Positions 1-14,402 of a stretch of 30,900 nucleotides of DNA are shown here, piece after piece. The notes beneath the pieces were generated by a model. The model was not told where the DNA came from. It worked only from the letters and a program-made list of their open reading frames with translations, and ran no database searches. The translations under genes were made by a program, and so were the position numbers. The DNA is from a virus (lineage: Duplodnaviria; Heunggongvirae; Uroviricota; Caudoviricetes): the IMG/VR virus record IMGVR_UViG_2619619129_000008; one strand, 5' to 3'. The stretch's first letter is position 1. Each line of letters begins with the position of its first letter.

Positions 1-147
1 TCAATAAATCCCATCATTGCGATCAACCTCATCCTTAACCATTGATGCGAGCAGTTCTTCCAGTTTCTGCGCTGACAGCTTTACCTGGTGATCTTCAGCA
101 TCTTCCCGGGCTATTGTGGTTCGCGCAGTGGCTGATTTTGCTGACAT
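1..147 (-). CDS. hypothetical small acidic protein (about 47 aa from the MSAKSATARTT... start); function unknown
   Basis: Minus-strand ORF ending with TGA at 1-3 (protein ends ...VDRNDGIY); internal ATG at 145-147. Charged, helix-like composition. No convincing Shine-Dalgarno; the longer 93-aa version would overlap the upstream hairpin. Confidence 0.25.
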   Translation of the reverse strand: MSAKSATARTTIAREDAEDHQVKLSAQKLEELLASMVKDEVDRNDGIY

Positions 148-235
148 CACCACAGGGGGCAGACGGACCATTGAACCATGGCCTCCGGAACAAATAAGGG
201 CAAAAATAACAACCACTATCGAAAGCTCACAAACT

Positions 236-470
236 AACCGCAGCACGTTCCTGTATACGACGTGTCTGCGGCATAATCCCAATGATTACTCCCTGACAGG
301 ATTTGCAGGCCACTCAATATCAGGTGCAGTTGATGTATCAACACGATTCAACAATACCCGATATTTATTCCATGCCTCCAGCAACGATCTTTCTTCCTCC
401 GTTGCGATTTCCAGATCTACAGCATCCTGCAGTGGCGCAATATACTCACTGAATTCCTGGATGTAGAACT
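236..470. repeat. direct repeat copy 1: 3' end of a tfa-like gene plus downstream hairpin, similar to 1286-1520
   Basis: By eye, 236-300 (aaccgcagcacgttc...ggcataatcccaatgattactccctgacagg) matches 1286-1346 nearly base for base; similarity continues into the coding 3' ends (both encode ...[31 protein letters not shown]) and fades after ~230 bp. Confidence 0.7.
238..271 (-). terminator. imperfect GC-rich hairpin downstream of the tfa-like fragment (possible terminator or RNA-stability element)
   Basis: ccgcagcacg (238-247) pairs with cgtgtctgcgg (261-271) with one bulged base; no strong U-tract on either strand. Confidence 0.3.
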
Positions 471-555
471 GTGTGGTGACGGTCTTCCAGCCATTCGGCT
501 CCTGCTGTATCGAAGCATACCAGGCTATTTCAATATCGCTATGCTGCGGCAGCAT
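286..555 (-). CDS. tail fibre assembly protein-like ORF, C-terminal domain only (truncated tfa paralogue or remnant, 89 aa)
   Basis: C-terminal 55 residues nearly identical to the C-terminus of the full Tfa at 1335-1919; N-terminal 35 residues unrelated. Has an ATG at 553-555 preceded by AAGGGG at SD spacing. Confidence 0.5.
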
Positions 556-611
556 TTAACCCCTTGTAATTCATCGCCATAATTGATTTAATTCACAAAT
601 AAAACTATAAC

Positions 612-1280
612 ATGGTGAAATTAATGAAAAAAAACACAGATGATGGGGCTAAAATTTACACACCACTTACCCTAAAGCTTTATGACTGGTGGGTTTTGGG
701 AGTATCAAATTGGCTTGCATGGGGATGTCCTACAAAGGAACACCTTCTTCCACACTTTCTGGAACATTTAGGTAACAACCATCTGGATATTGGTGTTGGA
801 ACTGGGTTTTACCTTACTCACGTACCTGAGAGTAGTCTGATATCTTTAATGGATTTGAACGAAGCTAGCCTGAACGCGGCATCTACAAGGGCTGGGGAAT
901 CAAAAATTAAACATAAAATTAGCCATGATGTTTTTGAACCTTATCCCGCGGCGTTACATGGTCAATTTGATTCCATTTCCATGTTTTACCTTCTTCACTG
1001 CCTGCCTGGAAATATAACTACAAAAAGCTGTGTAATACGCAATGCGGCGCAGGCCTTAACTGACGATGGAACTCTATACGGAGCCACAATTCTTGGCGAT
1101 GGAGTTGTGCACAATAGCTTCGGTCAAAAACTGATGCGCATTTACAATCAGAAAGGCATCTTTTCAAACACAAAAGATTCCGAAGAAGGCTTAACACATA
1201 TACTCTCAGAGCATTTCGAGAATGTTAAAACCAAGGTTCAAGGTACTGTAGTAATGTTTTCCGCTTCAGGGAAAAAATAG
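612..1280 (+). CDS. class I SAM-dependent methyltransferase (222 aa), substrate unknown; opposite-strand moron
   Basis: Glycine-rich SAM-binding motif LDIGVGTGF about 60 aa from the N-terminus. No DPPY/NPPY (amino-MTase) or PCQ (C5-MTase) motif seen, so probably not a DNA methyltransferase. Visibly AT-rich compared with flanking phage genes. Start may be the second ATG at 624 (GGTGA at SD spacing). Confidence 0.7.
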   Translation: MVKLMKKNTDDGAKIYTPLTLKLYDWWVLGVSNWLAWGCPTKEHLLPHFLEHLGNNHLDIGVGTGFYLTHVPESSLISLMDLNEASLNAASTRAGESKIKHKISHDVFEPYPAALHGQFDSISMFYLLHCLPGNITTKSCVIRNAAQALTDDGTLYGATILGDGVVHNSFGQKLMRIYNQKGIFSNTKDSEEGLTHILSEHFENVKTKVQGTVVMFSASGKK

Positions 1281-1285
1281 CATCC

Positions 1286-1520
1286 AACCGCAGCACGTTC
1301 TTGCTTAAGACGTGCTGCGGCATAATCCCAATGATTACTCCCTGACAGGGTTCGTAGGCCACTCAATATCAGGTGCAGTTGATGTATCAACACGGTTCAG
1401 CAACACCCGATACTTTTTCCAGGCTTCCAGCAATGAGGTTTCTTCCTCCGTTGCAATTTCCAGATCTGCAGCATCCTGAAGCGGCGCAATATGCTCGCTG
1501 GCTACCTGCATCAGGCTGTT
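1286..1520. repeat. direct repeat copy 2: 3' end of tfa plus downstream hairpin
   Basis: See copy 1 (236-470). Confidence 0.7.
1288..1320. terminator. hairpin between the convergent methyltransferase gene and tfa; possible bidirectional terminator
   Basis: ccgcagcacgt (1288-1298) pairs with acgtgctgcgg (1310-1320), an 11-bp stem. Begins 8 nt after the methyltransferase stop and ends 15 nt before the tfa stop. U-tracts are weak. Confidence 0.45.
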
Positions 1521-1919
1521 TTTTGTTTCTTCCGCCTCCCGGATCCGGAACAGTTTTTCTGCTTCTGCATCTTTCACCCAGGCTGTGCCGTTCCACTTCT
1601 GAAACTCCCCTTCCGGGGATAACCAGGTGACATTTTCCGGTAATGAGCCGAGTTCAGAAATAAATAACGCATCGCCGGAAGCCACGTCATAAACCGTTTT
1701 ACCCCGATGATCTTCAACGAGATGCCACGATGCCTCATCACTGTTGAAAACAGCCACAAAGCCAGCAGGAATATCTGGTGGTGCAATATCGGTACTGTTT
1801 GCTGGCAGACCTGTATGAGGCGGAATATATGCATCACCTTCACCAATAAATTCATTAGTTCCGGCCAGCAGATTATAAATTTTTATGGTCCGTGCTTGTT
1901 CACTCATTCTGAATGCCAT
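1335..1919 (-). CDS. tfa: tail fibre assembly protein Tfa (194 aa)
   Basis: Near-identical over its length to remembered lambda Tfa ([47 protein letters not shown]...). Start codon overlaps the stf stop at 1919. Confidence 0.9.
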
Positions 1920-4900
1920 TATGCAAGCCTCACAATATAGTTAAATGCGATGTTTTTGACGGTGTTTTCCGCGTTACCAGCAGCGTTAACGGTGATGGTG
2001 TGTCCATGTGAGCCAATCGCAACCGAGTGCGTATGCGCACCAATACCTACAGTATGTGCATGTGCGCCAGAACTTGCTGCAGTACCAGACAGCGAGTGGG
2101 TATGAGCACCTGCTGACTGTGTCTGAATACGTTGATAATACGATCTACTGGAAGAAGTCCCCGGGCTTACTTGATACTGTGAATCCTTGACATAAGTGAA
2201 CCCACCGCCATCATAAAATGCTAACGCAGAACCGCCGCCTCCTGGCCAACGAATACCATTACCATGAGTATGAGCACCGGCAGACCCCGTAGAGCCACTC
2301 AGACTGTGCGTATGCGCCCCGGTGTTATTCGTGGATTTAGTGCCGTAATCAAACGACGATGTGGTTTTCGTCCCCAAATCCGTACTGGATACGCTGGCGC
2401 TGTGGGTGTGCGATTTAATGCCGTCCTGTTCCTGAGATAATACGGCTCGACCACTGGCAGGTTTGCCCTTAATCGTCCAGCCACGCATATCAGGGATCAC
2501 GCCTGACGGATAAGCGGCTGCAAGTTTTGGGTAGGCAGATTTGTCAAAAGTCTGCCCCTGCATCAGGGCATAACCAGACGGAACGGTATCTGATGGCCAC
2601 GGGATTGGTGCACCGACTGGATAAAACTCTGCAGGAGGATGAGCCGAGGTGTAAAGCTGCGCCCAACCACTTTCAAAACCATAACCGTCTCTTGAAGAAC
2701 GGTAGAACAGACCACCATTTCTGTAATGCGCCTTCATCTGCAAGGTCCGGCAACTTCCGACTCCGGTATAGAAGTTAACCAGAATATAGCTGTCGCCAGA
2801 GCGGGTGACATTGTAAGCGCCTGATTCGGCATTCCATGGAACGCCCCCATCCGCATCGGCATACGCATCCGTTGCTCTTCTGGCAAAAGCAGCCACATGC
2901 GCGGCGGTTAAAGTGATATCAGTAGAACCATCAAATGGAACACCGGATATTTTTCTTGCAGTCTGAAGTTTTGTAGCAGTTGCAGCATTACCAGTGGTGT
3001 TCTGATTACCCGTAGTGTTTACACCTGGAAGGTTAATATTTGCAGAACCGTCGAAAACAACTCCACCGATAGATCTTGCCGTCTGCAATTTCGTGGCTGT
3101 ACTTGCATTACCATTCAATGAACCAGTTAATCCACCTGTAACAGACAACGGACCTGAAACTGTTCCTCCGGTTGTTGGCAGTGCTCCAATATCTAACGGC
3201 GTCGGTTTCTGATGTGTGCTATACATCGTATAAACAACACCATCGCTAACGCTGGAAGGCTTACTCGCTGAATATGTTGGCGATGTATAAATAGAAACTG
3301 TCGCATTTGCAGTACAATCCCAATGGATATTTACACGAGTCGCATAATTGCCAATCTCAACGTAAATATCATATGTATCGCCGGATGTGTTGATCCAGGC
3401 GAAATTCGTTAATCCGACGGCTGTACGCTTCCACAAAGCCCCGGTAATTCCTTTGGGGTTTCCATTGCCTGCTCGTAGAACCAGTTCTGAAATGCCTGCC
3501 TGATGTGGGGAACCGACGTTGTAACCAGCGCCACCAATCAATGCGATGTAAACGATGGAACTCGCTTGTGGCATGGTAACCGTAGCCAGTTTGAACCACC
3601 CAGCCCCGCCAGAGAAAGACATCGTTACTGAATTTAAAGTACCAATATCTTTCGGCGTTAATGTTATATCCGCAGTCAGTGCTTTTCCGTTAACTTTTCG
3701 GTTAGATGGCACCCTGCTATTCGCATTGTCATTGGCTGCTTTAACTGCTTTTGGCGTTGCGGCCAGCGATTCACTGGTGCTATCAACAGCACTGCTAAGT
3801 TTCACAACACCTTTAGTTGTAAGGCTTGCGTCTTCCATCGCAACTGCACCGGCAATCTCTTCAGCACGATCAGCAGCAGCTTCCGCACGGGTCGCAGCGG
3901 ATTCAGCAGCAGTTTTGCTCTGAGATGCTGCCGTCGCACTGCCTGCCGCCTCTGTTGCTTTCGTGGATGCCGTCGTGGCGCTGCCCTTCGCTGCTGACGC
4001 CTGTCTGGTCGCCTCATCTTTTGAAGCAGACGCAGATGATGCCGATGACGCTGCCGAACTGGCGGACGATGCGGCTGCCGTTTTTGAGGATTCTGCACGG
4101 GTTTCCGACGCTTTCGCATTCGTTTCGGATGTCTTCGCTGCGGAAGCAGACCTCGCTGCTGCGCTGGCCTGTACAGCGGCTTCGCCAGCCTTCGTTGTGG
4201 CTGTTGAAGCGGACGATGCAGCACTTTCTGCCGATTTTCCGGCGGCGGTGGCACTGGCTGAGGCCTGCCCGGCACTTGTTGACGCGGCACTGGCAGACGA
4301 CGCAGCCGCTGTTTTTGAGCCTGCCGCAGCTGAGGCACTCTGTCCCGCTGCCGTTTCAGAAGCCTTGGCGTTCGTCTCGGACGTTTTTGCCGCCTTCGCA
4401 GAATTTGCTGTCGCCGTTGCCGAGGAAGCTGCGCTGCTGGCGCTCGAGGCTGCGCTCGTTTCTGATGATTTTGCCGCCTCTTTTGAAGCCGACGCATCCC
4501 GGGCTGAGGTGGCAGCTTCTGACGCTTTCGTGGTCGCGGTGGATGCTGAAGTGGCTGCTGATTGTTGTGACGCTGCCGCATTCGTTTCTGACGTTTTCGC
4601 GGCACTGGCACTGGTAGCTGCCGCGCTTTTTGAGGACTCTGCAGCAGCAGCACTTTTCGATGCTTCACTGGCCTTTGTTGATGCCGTTCCTGCGCTGGAA
4701 GACGCTGACTGAGCCGACGACGCGGCCTGTCCGGCTGACGTGCTGGCTGCGCGTGCTGAGCCTGCAGCATCAGTCGCATGGGTTGCCGCCTCACGGGCTG
4801 ATGTGCCGGCATCGCCGGCTGACTTCTTCGCGGCTGCCGTGTTCTGTGCCACCGCGGACGCGTTACGCGCCACCTCTTCCACCATCAGCTCAAAACGGCG

Positions 4901-5209
4901 CAGTGCCTCTGGCCGGGCATCATCCTCCGTCATGGCACCGAGAAAATCATTCAGCGTACCGGGTCGGGAGTCTTCATACACGGTGATGGTCCCGGCATGT
5001 GACGGCGGGAATCCTTCCACCAACAGAATAACGCTGTACTGACCGTACTCAACGTCCATGCTGTAACGCCCGGCTTCATCCGGGTTTTCTGAGGCCACTG
5101 TGTTCACCACCACCGTGGTGCTGTTGCGCCTGGCCTTTAGCTGAATGGTGCAGTTTTGTATCGGCTTACCTGCGCCATCTTTCAGTACACCTGAAATCCG
5201 TACTGCCAT
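1919..5209 (-). CDS. stf: side tail fibre protein Stf (1096 aa), apparently uninterrupted, with a long Ala/Ser/Thr-rich repeat region
   Basis: Single ORF. N-terminus [38 protein letters not shown]... and C-terminus ...[27 protein letters not shown] match remembered lambda Stf; central ~300 aa is low-complexity A/S/T-rich. Confidence 0.9.
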
Positions 5210-5220
5210 ATTCCCCCCAC

Positions 5221-5246
5221 AAAAAAGCCCGCCTGAACCGGCGGGC
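5221..5246 (-). terminator. intrinsic terminator downstream of lom
   Basis: GC stem gcccgcc (5227-5233) / ggcgggc (5240-5246), preceded on the plus strand by A6 (5221-5226), which gives a U-tract after the stem on the minus-strand RNA. Confidence 0.6.
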
Positions 5247-5273
5247 TGTCATAACACTGTGTTACCTGGCTAA

Positions 5274-5873
5274 TCAGAATTTATAACCGACACCAACGAT
5301 GAAACTGTTGGTACGCCAGTCACCGCTGCCGGAGCCTTCATAAGCGACGTCAACGGCCACGGATTCGGTCGGGTTAAACTGCACGCCAGCTCCCCACGCC
5401 AGAGACGTGTTGCTGTGGCGACCGTCATCACTTCCGGTCAGCACATCGTGCGTTTTCCCCTTGTTGTCAGTTACGCGGATATAATCCCCGGAGAAAGTCG
5501 ACACACGGCTGTAAGCCATACCCGCCATCGCATACGCGCTGAACCATTCATTCACGCGCACAGACGGCCCCGCCATCACGCTGAACCAGCGATTACGCAC
5601 GGAATCCTCATGCCAGCGGGTATCGCTGTAATGCGTTTTTTGCTCATCTTCAGCGTTGGCATAACTGAATGACGTAATCAGCCCCAGCGTGTCCGTAAAC
5701 TCATAACGGTATTTCACGTTAATCCCGTTCAGATTTTCGCTGCCGGGAGCGTTCGTACGGGCATGAAGATACCCTGCGCTCAGTGTGGCCTGCTGCTCAG
5801 ACGCCCATGCAGGCGCACCGGATACGGCCAGACAGATGGCTGCGGACAAAATGGCTGCACAAACTTTACGCAT
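5274..5873 (-). CDS. lom: Lom/Ail-family outer-membrane beta-barrel protein (199 aa)
   Basis: N-terminal signal peptide (MRKVCAAILSAAICLAVSGAPAWA), alternating beta-strand pattern, C-terminal ...YEGSGSGDWRTNSFIVGVGYKF as in remembered lambda Lom; positioned between J and stf as in lambda. Confidence 0.85.
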   Translation of the reverse strand: MRKVCAAILSAAICLAVSGAPAWASEQQATLSAGYLHARTNAPGSENLNGINVKYRYEFTDTLGLITSFSYANAEDEQKTHYSDTRWHEDSVRNRWFSVMAGPSVRVNEWFSAYAMAGMAYSRVSTFSGDYIRVTDNKGKTHDVLTGSDDGRHSNTSLAWGAGVQFNPTESVAVDVAYEGSGSGDWRTNSFIVGVGYKF

Positions 5874-5894
5874 AATTACCTCTCGCTTTTCTGC

Positions 5895-5920
5895 AATAAA
5901 AAAGGCGCCATTTCTGGCGC
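5895..5920 (-). terminator. intrinsic terminator downstream of J (tJ-like)
   Basis: Stem ggcgcc (5903-5908) / ggcgcc (5915-5920) with loop atttct; A-run 5897-5902 on the plus strand gives a U-tract on the minus-strand RNA. Lies 20-45 nt past the J stop. Confidence 0.6.
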
Positions 5921-5940
5921 CCGTATATGGGTTATAAAAT

Positions 5941-8900
5941 TCAGCTGATACTGATGCCTGCGGTGGCTTTCTTCATCACCACAACCAGCAAATCGCTGAT
6001 ACTTGCTGTGGGATACCAGTCATTTACCAGCCATGCTGACACCGAAAACTCCAGCGTCATGTGGCCGTGACCAGCTGGCATATCAATAACACCACTGTAA
6101 ATCAGCGTATTATCCAGCGCGGTACGGTTATAAATTTCAGCACCATTTTTCTTCACTATCAGGCGGCATGAGGAGTAAATATCAGTATGCTCTCTCTCAT
6201 GTTTAGCACCGCTGAATGCCACCGCCGGAATAACAATCTGCCGGTCAAACGGCTGATCGTCATAAATCCTGACGGTAATGGTCCCTGATGGCCACCGCTC
6301 CGGTGCCCGGGAGTCCCGCGGGAAAGCCTTACCCACTGTTTTGACAATATCGCCTTCAATCTGGTTGGCTGACAGTTTCCCTTTAATCTGACAGTTCTCA
6401 TTTATCGTAACGTTGTTGAGCGTCCCGGCGTTCGCATTCACACTGCCACTGATATCTGCATTTTTAGCGGTCAGCTTTCCGTCCGGTGTCATGGAAAATG
6501 CAGGAGGATTACCGCCGCTGGTAATGGTGGGAGCCGTCAGATATTTCAGGAACACTTCATTCATGAATATCTGATCACCCTGACCAACAAACATCGGTTT
6601 TGTGTTGCCATTCGCAGGATTAATCATCGCAATCCGGTCAGCAGCCAGAAGCACCTGACTCTGCATACCTGCTGGCGTATTCTCAATACCGGCTCCGATA
6701 CCCGCAATATAAAGGCGTCCGTCCTTCATCTGCTGCAGTTTCACGGCCCACATGCTGTTCAGGTTATTATTTGTATCAACCTGAACTTTCTGTATCTGCT
6801 GGATTGCCGCACTCTGGTCTTCCAGTTTTTTATTGACGGTCTGCGTGATTTCATTGCTGACATTCGTAATGGACGTCCTGATTTCAGCCAGGTCCGGCGC
6901 AAGCTGACCGTTATCAATCTGCGTCCACAACTCCTGGGCCAGATGTGTTTTCCCGATTTCTCCTTTGAAAAAATCCAGGTAACCTTCCGCATCATCGCTC
7001 GCCCGACCGACAGCCTCCACGAATGCCGATTTGCCAACGGTGTTCACACTGCGAACGTAAAAATAATAATCATGGCCCGGTTTGATATTGATACTGGCGG
7101 CTATCCAGTACAGCGCCGTACCAAGATAGCGGGCTGTGGTTTCAACCTGCCTGATATCCGCAATCCGCTTTTCCGAGAACCAGAACTCAAACTGTACCGT
7201 CGGATCATAAACCGCAAGATGCGGCGTGGCGGTTATCTGAAAATAGCCCGGCGTCAGCTCAATCCGCGACGGCGCTGCCGGTGCGGCAATCCGGAACGAT
7301 ACCGACGCCGGATCGCCCTGCTGCCCCCACGCATTTACTGCCCGGACTGTCAGCCTGTAGTTCCCCAGAGCCAGTTGTGTGAAGCGGTAAGTGGTTTCCG
7401 TCGTCCGGGCCGTGCTGACCAGCCGCTCACTGCCGTCATCCGCTGTTACGGTCAGGCGAAGCATGAAACTCACGCCCTTCACCACCTTCGGCGTGTCCCA
7501 GCGGGCCAGTACCTGATACTCCCCGCTGTCTGCGGTGACTTCGGCAGTCAGGTGCTGCACTGCTGGCGGCGTGACACCATTCACCGTGCCGCTCTGGTCG
7601 CCGTCAAAGTGCGCCCCGTTATCCACGATAGCTTCTTTTTCCGGTACATGCTGCACGGCGGTGATGGCATACGTGCCGTCGTCGTTCTCACGGATACTCA
7701 CGCAGCGGAACAGGCGCTGGCGCAGCGTCGGCAGCTTCAGCCCCCATACGCTGTATCCGGCAACGCCGTCAGGAACACGGCTCACTTTTACCTTCACGCC
7801 GTCGGTGACGGACTGGACCTCCACGCTGACCGGATTGCCACTTCCGTCAACCAGGCTTATCAGCGTGGTACCGGAGGATGGCAGCGTGATTTCACGGTCG
7901 AGCGTCAGCGTCCGGGTCTGGCTGTTCACCGCCAGCACGCGCCCGCCGGTGCTGATCCCCGCATAGTCATCATCGCAGATTTCAATGACATCGCCCGGCA
8001 CATGGCGAAGCCCTTCCGCACCCACGCTGAAGTCCACGGTCTGCGTTTCCAGTAGTTCCGTTTTAATCAGCCACAGCCCGGCGCGGTGCGCCTGCCCCCG
8101 GCTGGTACAGCCAAAGGCATCCATCTTCGTGACGTTACGACCGTAACGGAGAATGGCCTGCGTATCTTCAACAAGCTCTGTCGCCGTCTCCCAGCCGTTA
8201 TCCGGGTCAATCCAGTTCACCTCAACGGCATTATGACGGTCCTTCAGGGCACTGAAGCTGTAGCGGAACGGCGCGCCATCATCCGGCATCACCACATTAC
8301 TGCAGTTATAGGTCCACACCTTATCCGACGGTCGGTCCTGCACGAACGTCAGCGTCTGCCCGTTCCATACCGGCATACAGCGCATCGCCGAGCAGAAATC
8401 ACTGAGAACATCCCACGCCTTGCGCTGTGTGGTCAGCCAGGCATTACAGGTGATGCGCGGCTCCGTGCCACCAAAGCCATCCGGCACCGACTGGTCGCAA
8501 TTCTGGCCGATGACATACAGCGCCCATTTGTCCACATCCGCCGCACCGAGACGCTTCCCCATGCCGTAGCGCGGATGGGTCAGCATATCCCACAGACACC
8601 AGGCCATGTTGTTGCTGTATGCTGGCTTAAACGTTCCGTCCCAGATACCGCTGTATTGCCGCGTCTGCGGGTTATAGTTCGACGGCACCTGCAGAATGCG
8701 CCCGCGAAGATGATAATTACGGCTCACCTGCTGGCTGCCGAACTGTTCCGAGTCCACCTGCACGCCGACCAGTGCCGTGTTCGGGTAGCACTGTTTCACA
8801 TCGATGATTTCGGTGTATGACGACCAGAGCGTTTTGTTCTGCAGCTGGTCTGTGGTGCTGTCCGGCGTCATTCTGCGCATCCGGATATTAAACGGGCGCG

Positions 8901-9420
8901 GCGGCAGGTTATCCACCACCACCGAGGCCAGATACTGCGAGGTGGTTTTGCCCTTAATGGTGATGTCTTTTTCCGTCACCCAGCCACCATTACGCTGTAT
9001 CTGAACCAGCAGGCGAACTTCCGACGGATTCCGGTCCCCCTTTGAGGTGGTTTCCACCAGTGCCTGCACACCGAAGGTAAAGCGCAGTCGGTCGATGTTT
9101 GCCGACGTGATGGCGCGGGTGATCGGCGTGTCGTATTTCACTTCCGTACCCAACACCGTCTCGGAGCCGGAGGATTCAAATCCCTCCGGCGGAGTCTGCT
9201 CCTGCTCACCAGCCCGGAACACCACCGTGACACCGGCGATGTTGGTATTCCCATCACTGTCCAGCACCGGCGTACTGTTCAGCAGCACGCTTTTTAATCC
9301 ATCCACCGGACCTTCAATCGGCCCTTCACTGATGGCATCAATCACACTCAGCAACTGCGTGGACTTCAGGTTGTCCTTCGCTTCGCGCGGGGTATGCCCC
9401 TTACTGCTTCCTTTACCCAT
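5941..9420 (-). CDS. J: tail tip / host specificity protein J (1159 aa)
   Basis: N-terminal ~800 aa follow remembered lambda J almost residue for residue ([45 protein letters not shown]...); the C-terminal portion departs from it. Confidence 0.95.
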
Positions 9421-9441
9421 TCCTCACGCTCCATAAACGAC

Positions 9442-9463
9442 AAAACCGCCCGCAGGCGGTTTC
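9442..9463 (-). terminator. hairpin in the I-J intergenic gap (terminator-like or attenuator; weak)
   Basis: ccgcc (9446-9450) / ggcgg (9455-9459) with short flanking A/T runs. Confidence 0.25.
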
Positions 9464-9480
9464 ACATAAAACATTTTGCA

Positions 9481-10152
9481 TCAGCGACCAATCACCACAA
9501 CCTGACCACCGTCCCCTTCGTCTGCCGTGCTGATCTCCTGAGAAACCACGCGTGACCCCACGCGCATTTCCCCGTACAGAACAGGCAGAACATTGCCCTG
9601 GGCAACCATGTTATCCAGTGAGGAGAAATAGGTGTTCTGCTTACCGTTATCCGTTGTCTGTGTACGGGGAGTTCTGGCTTTCGGTGCCAGCATCTGCGCC
9701 ACACCACCGAGCACCATACTGGCACCGAGAGAAAACAGGATGCCGGTCATACCACCGGCCCCAATGGCTGCCCCCCATGCTGCAAGGGTGGCTCCGGCGG
9801 TAAAGAATGATCCGGCAATGGCGGCAGCCCCCAGGACAATCTGGAATACGCCACCTGACTTGGCCCCGGCGACTCTGGGAACAATATGAATCACAGCGCC
9901 ATCAGGCAGAGTCTCATGTAACTGCGCCGTTAACCCGGACGTGCTGACGTCCCGCCCGGCAATCCGTACCTGATACCAGCCGTCGCTCAGTTTCTGACGA
10001 AACGCCGGGAGCTGTGTGGCCAGTGCCCGGATGGCTTCAGCCCCCGTTTTCACACGAAGGTCGATGCGGCGACCAAATCGTTGCAAATCCCCGTAAAGGC
10101 AGATGCGCGCCATGCCCGGTGACGCCAGAGGGAGTGTGTGCGTCGCTGCCAT
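9481..10152 (-). CDS. I: tail tip assembly protein I (223 aa)
   Basis: Length and sequence as remembered for lambda gpI; overlaps the end of K by 103 nt as in lambda. Confidence 0.9.
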   Translation of the reverse strand: MAATHTLPLASPGMARICLYGDLQRFGRRIDLRVKTGAEAIRALATQLPAFRQKLSDGWYQVRIAGRDVSTSGLTAQLHETLPDGAVIHIVPRVAGAKSGGVFQIVLGAAAIAGSFFTAGATLAAWGAAIGAGGMTGILFSLGASMVLGGVAQMLAPKARTPRTQTTDNGKQNTYFSSLDNMVAQGNVLPVLYGEMRVGSRVVSQEISTADEGDGGQVVVIGR

Positions 10153-10793
10153 TTGTCGGTGTACCTCTCTCGTTTGCTCAGTTGTTCAGGAATATGGTGC
10201 AGCAGCTCGCCGTCGCCGCAGTAAATTGCGGCGTGATTCGGCACCGATGAACCAAAACAGCACAGCAGCACATCGCCCGGCTGTGCCGCTGACAACGGCA
10301 CCTGATACAGCCCCGTCGCCTCCAGATTATCCAGATAGAGATTCTGGCCGTTACGCCACCAGTCATCCTCACGATGAAAGTCCGGCATCTCAATCCCCGC
10401 CAGATGATAAGCATCCCGGAACAGTGTGTAACAGTCCGTCACACCGTGCTCAAAGCGCCGCCCGGTGAGATGCGGCACACAGCGGAACTTATGAATCGTC
10501 CCCCGGCAGACCAGCCACCACGGCAAATCACTCTGCACCTGCAGCCGCCGGTCGGCCTCACTCAGCCAGGGCAGACCACCGGGGTGGCTGTGGACCAGCG
10601 CCACAATCTCACCCTGCATTTCTGCCTGCAGCCAGTCTTCCGGCGACATACGGAAATACGCCTCCGGCTCACCGGAGATATTCACGCAGGGGAAATATCT
10701 TTCCCCCTCCGGCGTGCTTACCACGAAGCCGCACGACTCCGCTGGCGCACATCGCCGGGCGTGCGCCAGAATCGCTGATTCTGTCTGTGTCAT
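10050..10793 (-). CDS. K: tail tip assembly protein K (MPN/JAB plus NlpC/P60-like); 247-aa ORF, a shorter form could start at the internal Met near 10649
   Basis: Matches remembered lambda gpK. The JAB-type motif H-S-H-x7-S-xx-D (EIVALVHSHPGGLPWLSEAD) is present; the long ORF starts right after the L stop. Confidence 0.85.
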   Translation of the reverse strand: MTQTESAILAHARRCAPAESCGFVVSTPEGERYFPCVNISGEPEAYFRMSPEDWLQAEMQGEIVALVHSHPGGLPWLSEADRRLQVQSDLPWWLVCRGTIHKFRCVPHLTGRRFEHGVTDCYTLFRDAYHLAGIEMPDFHREDDWWRNGQNLYLDNLEATGLYQVPLSAAQPGDVLLCCFGSSVPNHAAIYCGDGELLHHIPEQLSKRERYTDKWQRRTHSLWRHRAWRASAFTGICNDLVAASTFV

Positions 10794-10798
10794 GGGAT

Positions 10799-11497
10799 TT
10801 ACTGCGAAAGTTTGTTAATGGAAAGGAAGCCGCCAAAGTTGCCGACGTTATTGCGGAACTTACAACCGCTCAGGCATTTGCTGCATTTATCCTTCGTGAT
10901 ATCGGACGTTGGCTGGTCATATTCATCCGCGACAGCCGGACCGCTATAACCGCACTCGTCACCGCGATAGGTCCAGGTGCAGGTGTTGGCCAGCATGATA
11001 CGTCCCGGAAAAACAGCGCCATCCGTTTCCGTCGGCGTGGACAGTACAAAAGAGGCACTCACCGCGCTCAGTTCGCTGCACTGCTCAATGCGCCAGCGGC
11101 TGATCACCTCCTGCTCCGGATCGGCGCCACTGTTTCCGTTGACGAAGTTCACCGCATCCAGAAAACGGGCGTAAACCTTACGCCGGACCACCGTTCCACC
11201 GACCAGACTCTGCAGATCTTCCGCCATCCCGGTGACCATACCGTACAGGTTAGAAACCGTCAGTGTGGGGCGCGTACTGGTGCCTTTGCCATTCAGTTCA
11301 AAACCACTCCCCTGAATGGGATACGGCTGATACTGTCGCCCCTGCCAGGTGACCGGCTCACCTTTTTCGTTCTGCTCATTACAGAAAAAATAACGTTCTC
11401 CACCGACCTCTGTCAGGTCGATTTCCCAGAGCACCACGCTGGCCGACTGCTCCGCACGGGTGCATTCATTCAGTGTTTCCTGCCGGATATCCTGCAT
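10799..11497 (-). CDS. L: tail tip assembly protein L (232 aa)
   Basis: Same length as remembered lambda gpL, with four Cys near the C-terminus; its start overlaps the M stop by 1 nt as in lambda. Confidence 0.9.
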   Translation of the reverse strand: MQDIRQETLNECTRAEQSASVVLWEIDLTEVGGERYFFCNEQNEKGEPVTWQGRQYQPYPIQGSGFELNGKGTSTRPTLTVSNLYGMVTGMAEDLQSLVGGTVVRRKVYARFLDAVNFVNGNSGADPEQEVISRWRIEQCSELSAVSASFVLSTPTETDGAVFPGRIMLANTCTWTYRGDECGYSGPAVADEYDQPTSDITKDKCSKCLSGCKFRNNVGNFGGFLSINKLSQ

Positions 11498-11826
11498 CAG
11501 TTCACCACCTGTTCAAACTCTGCGCTGAACTCAACACGCAGCATACTGACCCGCGACGACCATTTTGCGCAGGTCACCTTTATCTGCCGCCACTCATAAG
11601 GCGGCGTCCACAGAAAGGCTTTCCAGCCCCCGTGCTCAGCCAGAAACGACTCCAGCGCCGTGGCCTCCCAACGGGGAACAGAAAGCGTCACGCTGTACGT
11701 TTTCAGGTCGGCATTCAGCCCGGCAGGCGCTCGCTGGGAATAGCCATCACCAAAGCGCACTTTCCTGACGGAAGGGGCCGAAGCCACATCCATACCGGGT
11801 TTCACTTTCCAGCGGAAGGTCTTCAT
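11497..11826 (-). CDS. M: tail tip protein M (109 aa)
   Basis: Same length and position as lambda gpM; 4-nt overlap with the H stop. Confidence 0.9.
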   Translation of the reverse strand: MKTFRWKVKPGMDVASAPSVRKVRFGDGYSQRAPAGLNADLKTYSVTLSVPRWEATALESFLAEHGGWKAFLWTPPYEWRQIKVTCAKWSSRVSMLRVEFSAEFEQVVN

Positions 11827-14402
11827 CGTCCACCTCCGGAGAACAGGCCACCATCACGCATCTGTGTCTGAATTTCATCACGGGCACCCTTGCGGGCCAT
11901 GTCATACACTGCTTTCATCATCTGTGGACCTGGCAGACCATTCGTACCGTCGTTCTGAATCACCACGTTGTTGTTCTGCTCAAACCTGATACCCTCTGAA
12001 CGCCGCATCTGCGCCGGACTTCCGGCACCGCCCACATAACCACCTTCCGCATAGCCCCGCATCAGGCGGTACAGGTTGCCGACACCAATTCGGCTGGTTG
12101 CCTCCTTCGTGAAGACAAATTCACCACGGTGAACAATCCCCGCTGGCTCATATTTGCCGCCGGTTCCCGTAAATCCTCCGGTTGCAAAATGGAATTTCGC
12201 CGCAGCTGCCTGAATGGCTGTACCGCCTGATGCGGATGCGCCGCCACCAACAGCCCCGCCAATGGCGCTACCGATACTCCCGACAATCCCCACCATTGCC
12301 TGCTTAAGCAGAATTTCTGTCATCATGGACAGCACGGAACGGGTGAAGCTGCGCCAGTTCTGCTCACTGCCGGTCAGCATCGCCGCCATATTCTGCGCAA
12401 TACCATCAAAGGTCTGCGTGGCTGCACTTTTAACCTGCGACATACTGTCCGTGGCGCTCTCTTCCCACTCACTCCAGCCGGACCTGAGGCCTGCCATCCA
12501 GCTCCCGCGAAGCTGGTCTTCAGCCGCCCAGGTCTTTTTCTGCTCTGACATGACGTTATTCAGCGCCAGCGAATTATCGCCATACTGTTCCTTCAGGCGC
12601 TGTTCTGTGGCTTCCCGCGCTGCCTGCCGGTCAGTAAGCCCCCGGTTTTTCGCCTCAATGGCTGCCCGTTTTGCCCGTTGTTGCTGTGCGAACTTATCCG
12701 CCTGCTGCGCCAGCGCGTTCAGGCGCTCCTGATACGTAACCTTGTCGCCAAGTGCAGCCAGCTGGCGTTTGTACTCCAGCGTCTCATCTTTATGCGCCAG
12801 CAGGGATTTCTCCTGTGCGGACAGCTGGCGACGTTGCGCCGCCTCCTCCAGTACCGCGAACTGACTCTCCGCCTTCCACAAATCCCGGCGCTGCTGGCTG
12901 ATTTTCTCATTTGCTCCGGCATGCTTCTCCAGCGTCCGGAGTTCAGCCTGAAGCGTCAGCAGGGCAGCATGAGCACTGTCTTCCTGACGATCGCCCGCAG
13001 ACACTTTCACGCCGGACTGTTTCGGCTTTTTCAGCGTCGCTTCATAATCCTTTTTCGCCGCCGCCATCAGCGTGTTGTAATCTGCCTGCAGGATTTTCCC
13101 GTCTTTCAGTGCCTTGTTCAGTTCTTCCTGACGGGCGGTATATTTCTCCAGCGGCGTCTGCAGGCGTTCGTAAGCCTTCTGCGCCTCTTCGGTATATTTC
13201 AGCCGTGATGCCTCAGACTCGGCCCAGTCCTTTGCTGCCATCTCTCTGGCCTTTTCAAGATCGGCCTGCAACGTGGCGGCTGAAAGCCCAAGTTGCGCAT
13301 TCGCTCTGTCCTCCCATGCTCCCCGGAGATTGGCAAGAAATGCTGAGGTTTTACCGCGCCGGTGGCTTCGGCTCTGATACCACTGCCATTTTTTGTCCGC
13401 CTCATCAAAAGCCTTTTCTGCTTTCTCCAGCATTCCCTGGGCAGTGTCCGGGCGACCAATATCCAGCACCGAATCCCACATGGATTTGAATGCCCGTGCT
13501 GTCCTGTCTGCCCAGGTCTCCAGCGTGCCCATGTTCTCTTTCAGGCGGCGGGTCTGGTCATCAAACCCTTTCGTTGCGGCCTCGTTCGCCGCCTGCAATG
13601 CCCCGGCTTCATCTCCGGAACGCTGCAACTGAGCAACATACGCAATCTGCTCCGCCGTCACGTTATGGAACTGACGTGCCATCGCTGTCAGTCCCGACGT
13701 CGGGTCTGTGGTCAGCTTCCCGAAGGCTTCAGCGACCTTGTCCACCTCCACGCCGGATGCAGAGGAGAAACGCGCCACACTCTGGCTGATCGACTCAAAC
13801 TGCTCACCACCACGCACACCGGCATTCACCAGCGCCGTCAGTGACTCGCTGGTCTGGTTAAACGTCAGCCCTGCCGCCTGCCCGGCTCTGGACAGGGCCA
13901 GAATACGATCTGCCGTCAGTCCCGCCTGATTGCCGGAAAGGACCAGCGTTTTGTTGAAATCGGACAGGGTTGAGTTGCCCTGATACCAGGCATACGCCAG
14001 CGCACCGGTCGCCACCGCCAGCGAGGTGGCCCCCACCATCGGCAGGGTGATCGCACCGGCAAGCCCCCTGAACATGGGGATCATCCCGCCGAAGGAGTCC
14101 TTAACCTGACCACCCTGTTGCAGCAGGATCAGCCACGGACTTTGCCCGCCTGCAAGCTGCGTGGCCACGTCGGTGAACTGTGCAGGCAGCATACGCATGG
14201 CGGCTTTATACTGCCCGACGGAAATCCCCGCTTTCTGTGCAGCCAGCGCCTGTCGGCTCAGCGACTGTTCAACGACTGCCGCTGTTTTTTTCGCATCAGT
14301 TTCCGTACCGGAAAAATGACGCCTGACTCTGGCCATCTGCTCGTCAAATCTGGCCGCATCCAGACTTAAATCAACGACCAGATCGCCTACCGGTTCAGCC
14401 AT
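11823..14402 (-). CDS. H: tail tape measure protein H (859 aa)
   Basis: Long coiled-coil-rich protein with a Gly-rich C-terminal region, collinear with remembered lambda gpH (853 aa); 8-nt overlap with the end of the T frame as in lambda. Confidence 0.95.
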   Translation of the reverse strand: MAEPVGDLVVDLSLDAARFDEQMARVRRHFSGTETDAKKTAAVVEQSLSRQALAAQKAGISVGQYKAAMRMLPAQFTDVATQLAGGQSPWLILLQQGGQVKDSFGGMIPMFRGLAGAITLPMVGATSLAVATGALAYAWYQGNSTLSDFNKTLVLSGNQAGLTADRILALSRAGQAAGLTFNQTSESLTALVNAGVRGGEQFESISQSVARFSSASGVEVDKVAEAFGKLTTDPTSGLTAMARQFHNVTAEQIAYVAQLQRSGDEAGALQAANEAATKGFDDQTRRLKENMGTLETWADRTARAFKSMWDSVLDIGRPDTAQGMLEKAEKAFDEADKKWQWYQSRSHRRGKTSAFLANLRGAWEDRANAQLGLSAATLQADLEKAREMAAKDWAESEASRLKYTEEAQKAYERLQTPLEKYTARQEELNKALKDGKILQADYNTLMAAAKKDYEATLKKPKQSGVKVSAGDRQEDSAHAALLTLQAELRTLEKHAGANEKISQQRRDLWKAESQFAVLEEAAQRRQLSAQEKSLLAHKDETLEYKRQLAALGDKVTYQERLNALAQQADKFAQQQRAKRAAIEAKNRGLTDRQAAREATEQRLKEQYGDNSLALNNVMSEQKKTWAAEDQLRGSWMAGLRSGWSEWEESATDSMSQVKSAATQTFDGIAQNMAAMLTGSEQNWRSFTRSVLSMMTEILLKQAMVGIVGSIGSAIGGAVGGGASASGGTAIQAAAAKFHFATGGFTGTGGKYEPAGIVHRGEFVFTKEATSRIGVGNLYRLMRGYAEGGYVGGAGSPAQMRRSEGIRFEQNNNVVIQNDGTNGLPGPQMMKAVYDMARKGARDEIQTQMRDGGLFSGGGR

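Follow-up and report, generated by a model that had tools for sequence, protein, structure and literature searches.

Mosaic structure of a lambda-like J protein whose tip, of a type common in E. coli, is predicted to use OmpC

Protein J, the tail-tip protein encoded in the window (our term for the whole 30,900-nucleotide stretch of viral DNA that was analysed), is a mosaic in which lambda-like hub and FNIII domains are followed by a long shaft of the phage 21 type and, after a conserved junction, by a tip of the VT1-Sakai/PhiR55_1 type that probably uses OmpC, not LamB, as its receptor. We put the probability of this reading as a whole at about 0.8. The tip type, its receptor and modular exchange of this kind are already described in the literature and exploited in engineered particles for delivery, and nothing about them is new here; the finding is correct and ordinary, and its importance is limited.

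Gene J and its protein family

Gene J occupies positions 5941-9420 of the minus strand as an intact open reading frame of 1159 aa plus stop, and its translation includes both peptides quoted in the initial annotation of this DNA. It was identified as a tail-tip/central tail fibre protein from its translation, the NCBIfam model NF049904 and the Pfam gpJ domain set. NF049904 (lambda_TipJ) scored 2382 bits against J (cutoff 1950) and aligned over 1-1159 of 1163, which makes J a member of that family; the length of the model, 1163 positions, is that of the long form of J. The Pfam domains found along J, all scoring above their cutoffs, are FNIII-A_GpJ (aa 86-207), Phage-tail_3 (aa 330-498), Ig_J (aa 610-714), Ig_J_second (aa 716-818), Phage_Tail_Tip (aa 872-1000) and Ig_GpJ_C (PF12421, aa 1029-1159, 127 bits). 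This is the order of the gpJ family, that is, a hub, two FNIII/Ig domains, a tail-tip fibre and a C-terminal Ig-like receptor-binding domain. By PHROG assignments, the gene follows H-M-L-K-I and precedes lom and stf, an order also found in lambda, phage 21 and PhiR55_1.

Could J be a decaying prophage remnant without current function, in which case its receptor specificity would be moot? We consider this very improbable. It is true that a frameshift interrupts the VT1-Sakai copy of the same J type, and that in the closest genome the left end of the window corresponds to remnants of tail-fibre pseudogenes. However, the 1159-aa frame of the window is uninterrupted and is matched end to end by the NCBIfam model, and J agrees with that of an infectious phage, PhiR55_1 (PV340571), in length and, at 98-99% identity, in the sequence of every segment. 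Furthermore, the window contains intact copies of all the neighboring tail genes (H, M, L, K, I, lom, stf and tfa) as well as open reading frames sized like the head and terminase genes of lambda.

Comparison with lambda J

We compared J with lambda J (NC_001416, 15505-18903) segment by segment using global alignment, with protein domains named after the lambda gpJ structure paper (PMC11101478). Lambda gpJ (PDB 8xcj/8xck, 8iyk) has the same domain order as the window J (hub, two FNIII domains, helical shaft, beta prism, Ig-like tip) and the same tip fold, but its shaft is 27-28 aa shorter, its tip is strongly diverged and its receptor is LamB. The overall identity of the two proteins, 84% by BLASTP, is distributed very unevenly.

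The hub domains and the two FNIII/Ig domains (aa 1-819; 6964-9420, minus strand) are lambda-like, with 798 of 819 residues (97%) identical to lambda and 98% identity to the J of phage 434. The initial annotation had described the first ~800 residues as nearly identical to lambda and had placed the start of the divergence exactly where we find it, directly after aa 819, where the second FNIII/Ig domain gives way to the alpha-helical shaft of the central fibre. The shaft and the upper beta-prism fibre (aa 820-960; 6541-6963, minus strand) represent a non-lambda allele by both segment identities and a nucleotide sliding window: aa 820-900 are only 26% identical to lambda J, with an insertion accounting for the 27-28 aa by which the window J is longer, and aa 901-960 are 63% identical. 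Next comes a conserved junction between the shaft and tip modules (aa 961-1005; 6406-6540, minus strand), 93% identical to lambda and composed of near-invariant columns in the multiple alignment. The transition from the lowest fibre prism to the receptor-binding domain follows (aa 1006-1028; 6337-6405, minus strand), in which aa 1006-1020 match lambda at 53% and phage 21 at 80% of positions.

The receptor-binding domain itself (aa 1029-1159; 5944-6336, minus strand) is an Ig-like beta sandwich, assigned from PF12421, sequence identities and a structural model to the type found in gpJ 1A2, VT1-Sakai and PhiR55_1, and putatively binds OmpC. It is not of the lambda (LamB) type by sequence, having 41% identity to lambda J over the Pfam domain and 43% over aa 1021-1159, the lambda counterpart being aa ~1001-1132. 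The expectation that the C-terminal ~150 aa would prove strongly unlike lambda was thus borne out over the last ~140 aa, whose 41-43% identity is far from the >90% that had been set beforehand as the mark of a lambda C-terminal domain. The range initially assigned to the divergence, 5941-6700, spans just aa 907-1159, whereas the diverged block runs from 6963 down to 5944. Nor is the divergence from lambda monotonic along that block, because the conserved island at aa 961-1005 lies between two modules that can be exchanged independently.

We had expected the divergence of the tip to be concentrated in its loops. This is ruled out by the even spread of identity to lambda, with 40% for predicted strands as against 44% for loops. 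Since strands and loops have diverged equally, the sequence points to an old, fully diverged allele and not to recent remodeling of loops.

Sources of the modules

Where did the non-lambda segments come from? At the protein level aa 820-960 share 97-98% of their residues with phage 21 and with PhiR55_1, and they are unrelated to the short shaft common to lambda and 434. A nucleotide sliding window, with lambda, phage 21, PhiR55_1 and VT1-Sakai as partners, gave 27-36% identity to lambda over the shaft versus 96-99% to phage 21 and VT1-Sakai. Phage 21 J is 97-98% identical to the window J up to aa 960, long shaft included, but its tip has just 59-62% identity and resembles the A8 type. The J of phage 434 resembles that of the window in combining an N-terminus of the lambda type (98%) with an exchanged tip; it differs in that it keeps the short shaft of lambda (99% identical to lambda) and in its tip, which is 40% identical to that of the window. 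Phage 434 is the classical OmpC-using lambdoid phage.

The junction at aa 961-1005 has, besides its 93% identity to lambda, 87-91% identity to phage 21, PhiR55_1 and 434, a degree of conservation that makes it the likely recombination joint of the shaft and tip modules. The megablast match of J, both to phage 21 and to numerous lambda-like phages, stops not far downstream, at nt 3100 of the gene, which is aa 1033. The Eligo chimeras were joined at lambda aa 964 (PMC11338833), the equivalent of aa 992 in the window J. The junction would account both for natural tip exchange and for the success of engineered grafts made there.

In VT1-Sakai J the match extends over aa ~750-1159 at 91-100% nucleotide identity (93-98% in the tip), whereas the N-terminal two thirds of the gene have only 66-79% identity. 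The low identity of the latter indicates that the C-terminal modules travel between J genes that are otherwise diverged. The module swap that had been proposed for the host-range region is therefore real, as can be seen from the segment identities and the breakpoints alike.

Relatives and predicted fold of the tip

Over aa 1029-1159 the tip is identical to PhiR55_1 at 129 of 130 positions, to phage 21 at 59-62%, to phi330/A8 at 57-60%, to lambda at 41% and to 434 at 40%, which also separates it from the 434 type. At 95% amino-acid identity or above it occurs in approximately 53 phage records; VT1-Sakai, many Stx1a and Stx2a long-tailed phages, the PPompW prophages and P-EibA share it with the window at 95-97%. 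No match to the tip was found in the J proteins of phi80 and HK97, which match in the shaft/fibre part only (37% and 28%, respectively).

The tip of A8, essentially that of the Stx2a siphophage phi330, shares with the window tip its fold and a C-terminal motif (9wca, 9wcb; PMC12502783), but it falls well below the ~90% identity and shared indels that would make the two one type; compared with the window it lacks 4 aa at one place and has 5 extra aa at another. Judged on these sequence differences, the A8/phi330 domain is a sister type of the window tip and not the same type.

An AlphaFold2 model of aa 960-1159 predicted an all-beta tip, with block-mean pLDDT values of 74-96 over aa 1029-1148. 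The best Foldseek matches to this model were gpJ of A8, both free (9wca, E 4e-20) and with OmpC (9wcb, E 4e-18, described as 'A8 gpJ 713 central tail fiber with OmpC G17 from E. coli EDL933'), followed by lambda gpJ, free (8xck, E 6e-18) and with LamB (8xcj). The model and its matches together assign the window tip to the Ig-like beta-sandwich fold of gpJ tips. Within the tip type, aa 1075-1081 are hypervariable, and aa 1118-1120 and 1130-1135 also vary. Enrichment of variation in loops amounted to a weak trend, the share of variable positions being 42% in loops versus 30% in strands (p = 0.17 by Fisher's test), and just the local hot spots stand out.

Receptor of the tip

Which receptor would a tip of this type recognize? 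The most informative comparison is with gpJ 1A2, since Brodel et al. (Nature 2024, PMC11338833) report that this lambda chimera and a second one, A8, use OmpC in place of LamB. The 1A2 DNA, taken from Supplementary file 1 of that paper, was machine-read with indels and was for that reason compared by a frameshift-tolerant protein-to-DNA alignment. In the last 130 aa, 116 of the 126 readable positions are identical between the window tip and 1A2, and over the whole 1A2 donor part (aa 992-1159) a hand count on the same alignment gave 147 of 163. This places the window tip in the 1A2 type. Several mismatches fall at evident machine-reading errors, and the true number of differences is probably ~5-10 per 130 aa, examples (window/1A2) being VND/VNN, ISIS/ITIS and HER/HEK. 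The two share a C-terminal motif ending in (S/T)IS, and the conserved junction of the window J is the one used in grafting. They differ in that 1A2 is an engineered fusion on lambda aa 1-964, with the short lambda shaft, while the window J is a natural protein with the long shaft of the phage 21 type. The published 1A2 DNA has 69% nucleotide identity to the window and encodes ~90% identical amino acids, and it appears to have been recoded.

The receptor of 1A2 was established in K-12 recipients in which lamB and ompC were deleted and ompC was supplied from a plasmid (PMC11338833). At the top MOI, 1A2 gave more than 75% GFP-positive cells with 20 of 23 natural OmpC variants, and 2% or fewer with OmpC G1 (K-12 MG1655), G2 and G40 (PMC11338833 source data). 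Wild-type lambda gpJ delivered to 3% or fewer of cells of the same lamB-deleted strains at every dose (PMC11338833). OmpC dependence has also been demonstrated experimentally for A8/phi330: phi330 forms no plaques when ompC is deleted, and complementation restores its growth (PMC12502783). A8 and phi330 differ from 1A2, the type of the window, in accepting the OmpC of K-12.

The tip's 41-43% identity to that of lambda, taken with its near-identity to the OmpC-dependent 1A2, supports by homology the earlier proposal that this phage uses a different outer-membrane receptor. Among the receptor genes considered (lamB, ompC, ompF and fhuA), the analogy with 1A2 points to ompC as the candidate. That the tip might still use LamB, as lambda does, is hardly credible. 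It does belong to the same domain family as the lambda tip and has the same fold, and one 12-aa segment equals lambda's RQRESSVDWPSG in length where phage 21 and A8 carry a 4-aa deletion. Against this, identity to the lambda domain is low even when strands and loops are taken separately, and the nearly identical 1A2 functions in cells deleted for lamB and requires OmpC, under conditions in which wild-type lambda gpJ largely fails.

If the window J does behave like 1A2, it would accept most natural OmpC variants but not the OmpC of K-12. Circumstantial evidence for this is that the closest phage records that name a laboratory host give E. coli C or ECOR13 and never K-12, as would fit the failure of 1A2 on K-12 OmpC. 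PhiR55_1 has been used as an infectious phage in a study (PMC13190303) that covers ManYZ and a nuclease and contains no receptor data for PhiR55_1 or other ECOR-derived phages. In the literature searched we found no receptor assignment for the tips of VT1-Sakai, the Stx long-tailed phages, the PPompW prophages, P-EibA or PhiR55_1, and a 2026 receptor-prediction preprint covers virulent siphoviruses but does not treat lambda-like J tips of the window kind.

Is it conceivable that the few differences from 1A2 have changed the receptor, such that the tip uses another outer-membrane protein (OmpF, another porin, BtuB or OmpX) in addition to, or instead of, OmpC? There are those ~5-10 differences per 130 aa, and the tip type has the hypervariable and variable positions described above. 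Moreover, OmpC, OmpX and BtuB are the reported binding partners of Gifsy-1 J (PMC12312913), and single substitutions can let lambda J gain OmpF (cited in PMC11101478). We regard such a shift as improbable, however, because differences from 1A2 are also found in the natural cluster members P0002, P0012 and P0026, because 1A2 binding is robust enough to tolerate 20 of 23 OmpC variants, and because delivery by 1A2 without OmpC in the double deletion background is ~2% or less. A broader form of the idea, in which the few differences together with aa 1075-1081 lead this allele either to accept a set of OmpC variants other than that of 1A2 or to use a second receptor, seems rather unlikely. Were it true, the thousands of copies of this tip would represent graded OmpC-variant specificities that partition prophage traffic among E. 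coli lineages.

With OmpC as the favored receptor, the events at the cell surface may be pictured by analogy with the solved complexes of lambda with LamB and of A8 with OmpC. The Ig-like tip, a trimer, would dock on trimeric OmpC, not LamB, and docking would spread the tip open; a twist might then pass up the prism and shaft, leading to unplugging of the tail (after PMC11101478). The host ompC gene lies outside the window.

Distribution among E. coli genomes

Of 5426 complete E. coli genomes, 3394 contain matches to the 390 nt that encode the window tip, mostly at 90-99% identity; the median number of copies per genome is two. The corresponding 390 nt of lambda have matches in 98 of the 5426, all with at least 99% identity, and the genomes with a lambda tip among the matches listed (five) are all laboratory strains, such as DE3 lysogens. 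The initial annotation had presented the window tip as one that departs from lambda. While the difference in sequence is genuine, that framing is reversed by these counts: taken with the long-form NF049904 model, they lead to the conclusion that lambda is the outlier and that the window J is the common natural form.

Lambda is thus atypical at its tail tip, and most lambda-like prophages of natural E. coli bear the tip type of the window, the LamB-binding tip being essentially confined to lambda itself and its laboratory lysogens. By its near-identity to the tested 1A2, this majority tip type of E. coli would be directed at OmpC. In annotation, tip type would be of use as a predictor of infectable strains, here those with the common OmpC variants and not K-12.

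Neighboring genes and prophage context

The best match to positions 1-12000 of the window among complete E. coli genomes has 98% identity over 94% of that region. In this closest genome the same prophage adjoins an ompW remnant and yciE/yciF, a site that fits with the PPompW prophages, which have the same tip.

Downstream of J lie intact genes for the side tail fibre (stf; 1919-5209, minus strand; 1096 aa) and for tail fibre assembly (tfa; 1335-1919, minus strand; 194 aa), identified from the PHROG tail fibre and tail fibre assembly families, respectively, and from the annotation of the closest genome. Together stf/tfa (1335-5209) constitute a second host-range determinant of the same virion. 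Between J and lom, a consensus scan detected a terminator-like hairpin and T-run (5893-5922, minus strand) consisting of GGGCGCCAGAAATGGCGCCT then TTTTTATTGC, with eight pairs, six of them G-C, the hairpin after J having coordinates 5922-5903; in phage 21 a terminator is annotated at the same position after J.

Shaft, tip and variation in J

The J tail-tip proteins of the classical lambdoid phages are built from shafts and tips that assort independently. Phage 434 J (OL657227) carries its own tip on lambda's short shaft (99% identical to that of lambda) and phage 21 J (OL657228) carries an A8-like tip on a long shaft as in the window J, two pairings which together show this independent assortment.

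Among natural proteins of the window's tip type, the most variable stretch is EREHTDI (aa 1075-1081 of J; window 6178-6198, minus strand), with three to five different residues at each position in seven sequences of the type; other variable positions are at aa 1118-1120 and aa 1130-1135. Variation across the tip type overall was not significantly enriched in loops (p = 0.17). We consider these three segments candidate determinants of preference among OmpC variants.

The same tip type is found in J (1921-5393, AP000400) of VT1-Sakai, the Stx1 prophage of O157:H7 Sakai. The annotation splits this J into two ORFs described as "truncated by a mutation", and the length of the region as extracted, 3473 nt, is not divisible by three. 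Some genomic copies of the tip type therefore reside in broken genes.

Genes downstream of J

Terminator-like hairpins with T-runs directly follow both J (window 5922-5903, minus strand) and lom (5247-5226, minus strand), the former at the same position as an annotated terminator after J in phage 21. Bracketed in this way, lom is predicted to form a unit of its own.

The side tail fibre gene of the window (1919-5209, minus strand; 1096 aa) is intact, whereas that of reference lambda is split into orf-401 and orf-314, and it is accompanied by a tail fibre assembly gene (1335-1919, minus strand). Together with J, this fibre would give the phage particle two host-range determinants.

Left end and closest genome

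The exact window sequence was present in none of the complete E. coli RefSeq genomes searched, the best match among which, from a human faecal isolate from Tanzania, aligns to 94% of window 1-12000 at 98.0% identity. Just past the tail fibre assembly gene, and on the opposite strand to it, lies a 222-aa ORF (612-1280, plus strand) that matches PHROG 2132, a family of unknown function. The annotation of the closest genome calls the counterpart of this ORF a class I SAM-dependent methyltransferase; the ORF is probably prophage cargo. Window 1-555 corresponds to pseudogene remnants in that genome, one a fragment carrying a DUF4376 domain and the other an incomplete tail fibre assembly gene. The prophage end there adjoins a truncated ompW beside yciE/yciF, which is the attachment region of "PPompW" prophages.
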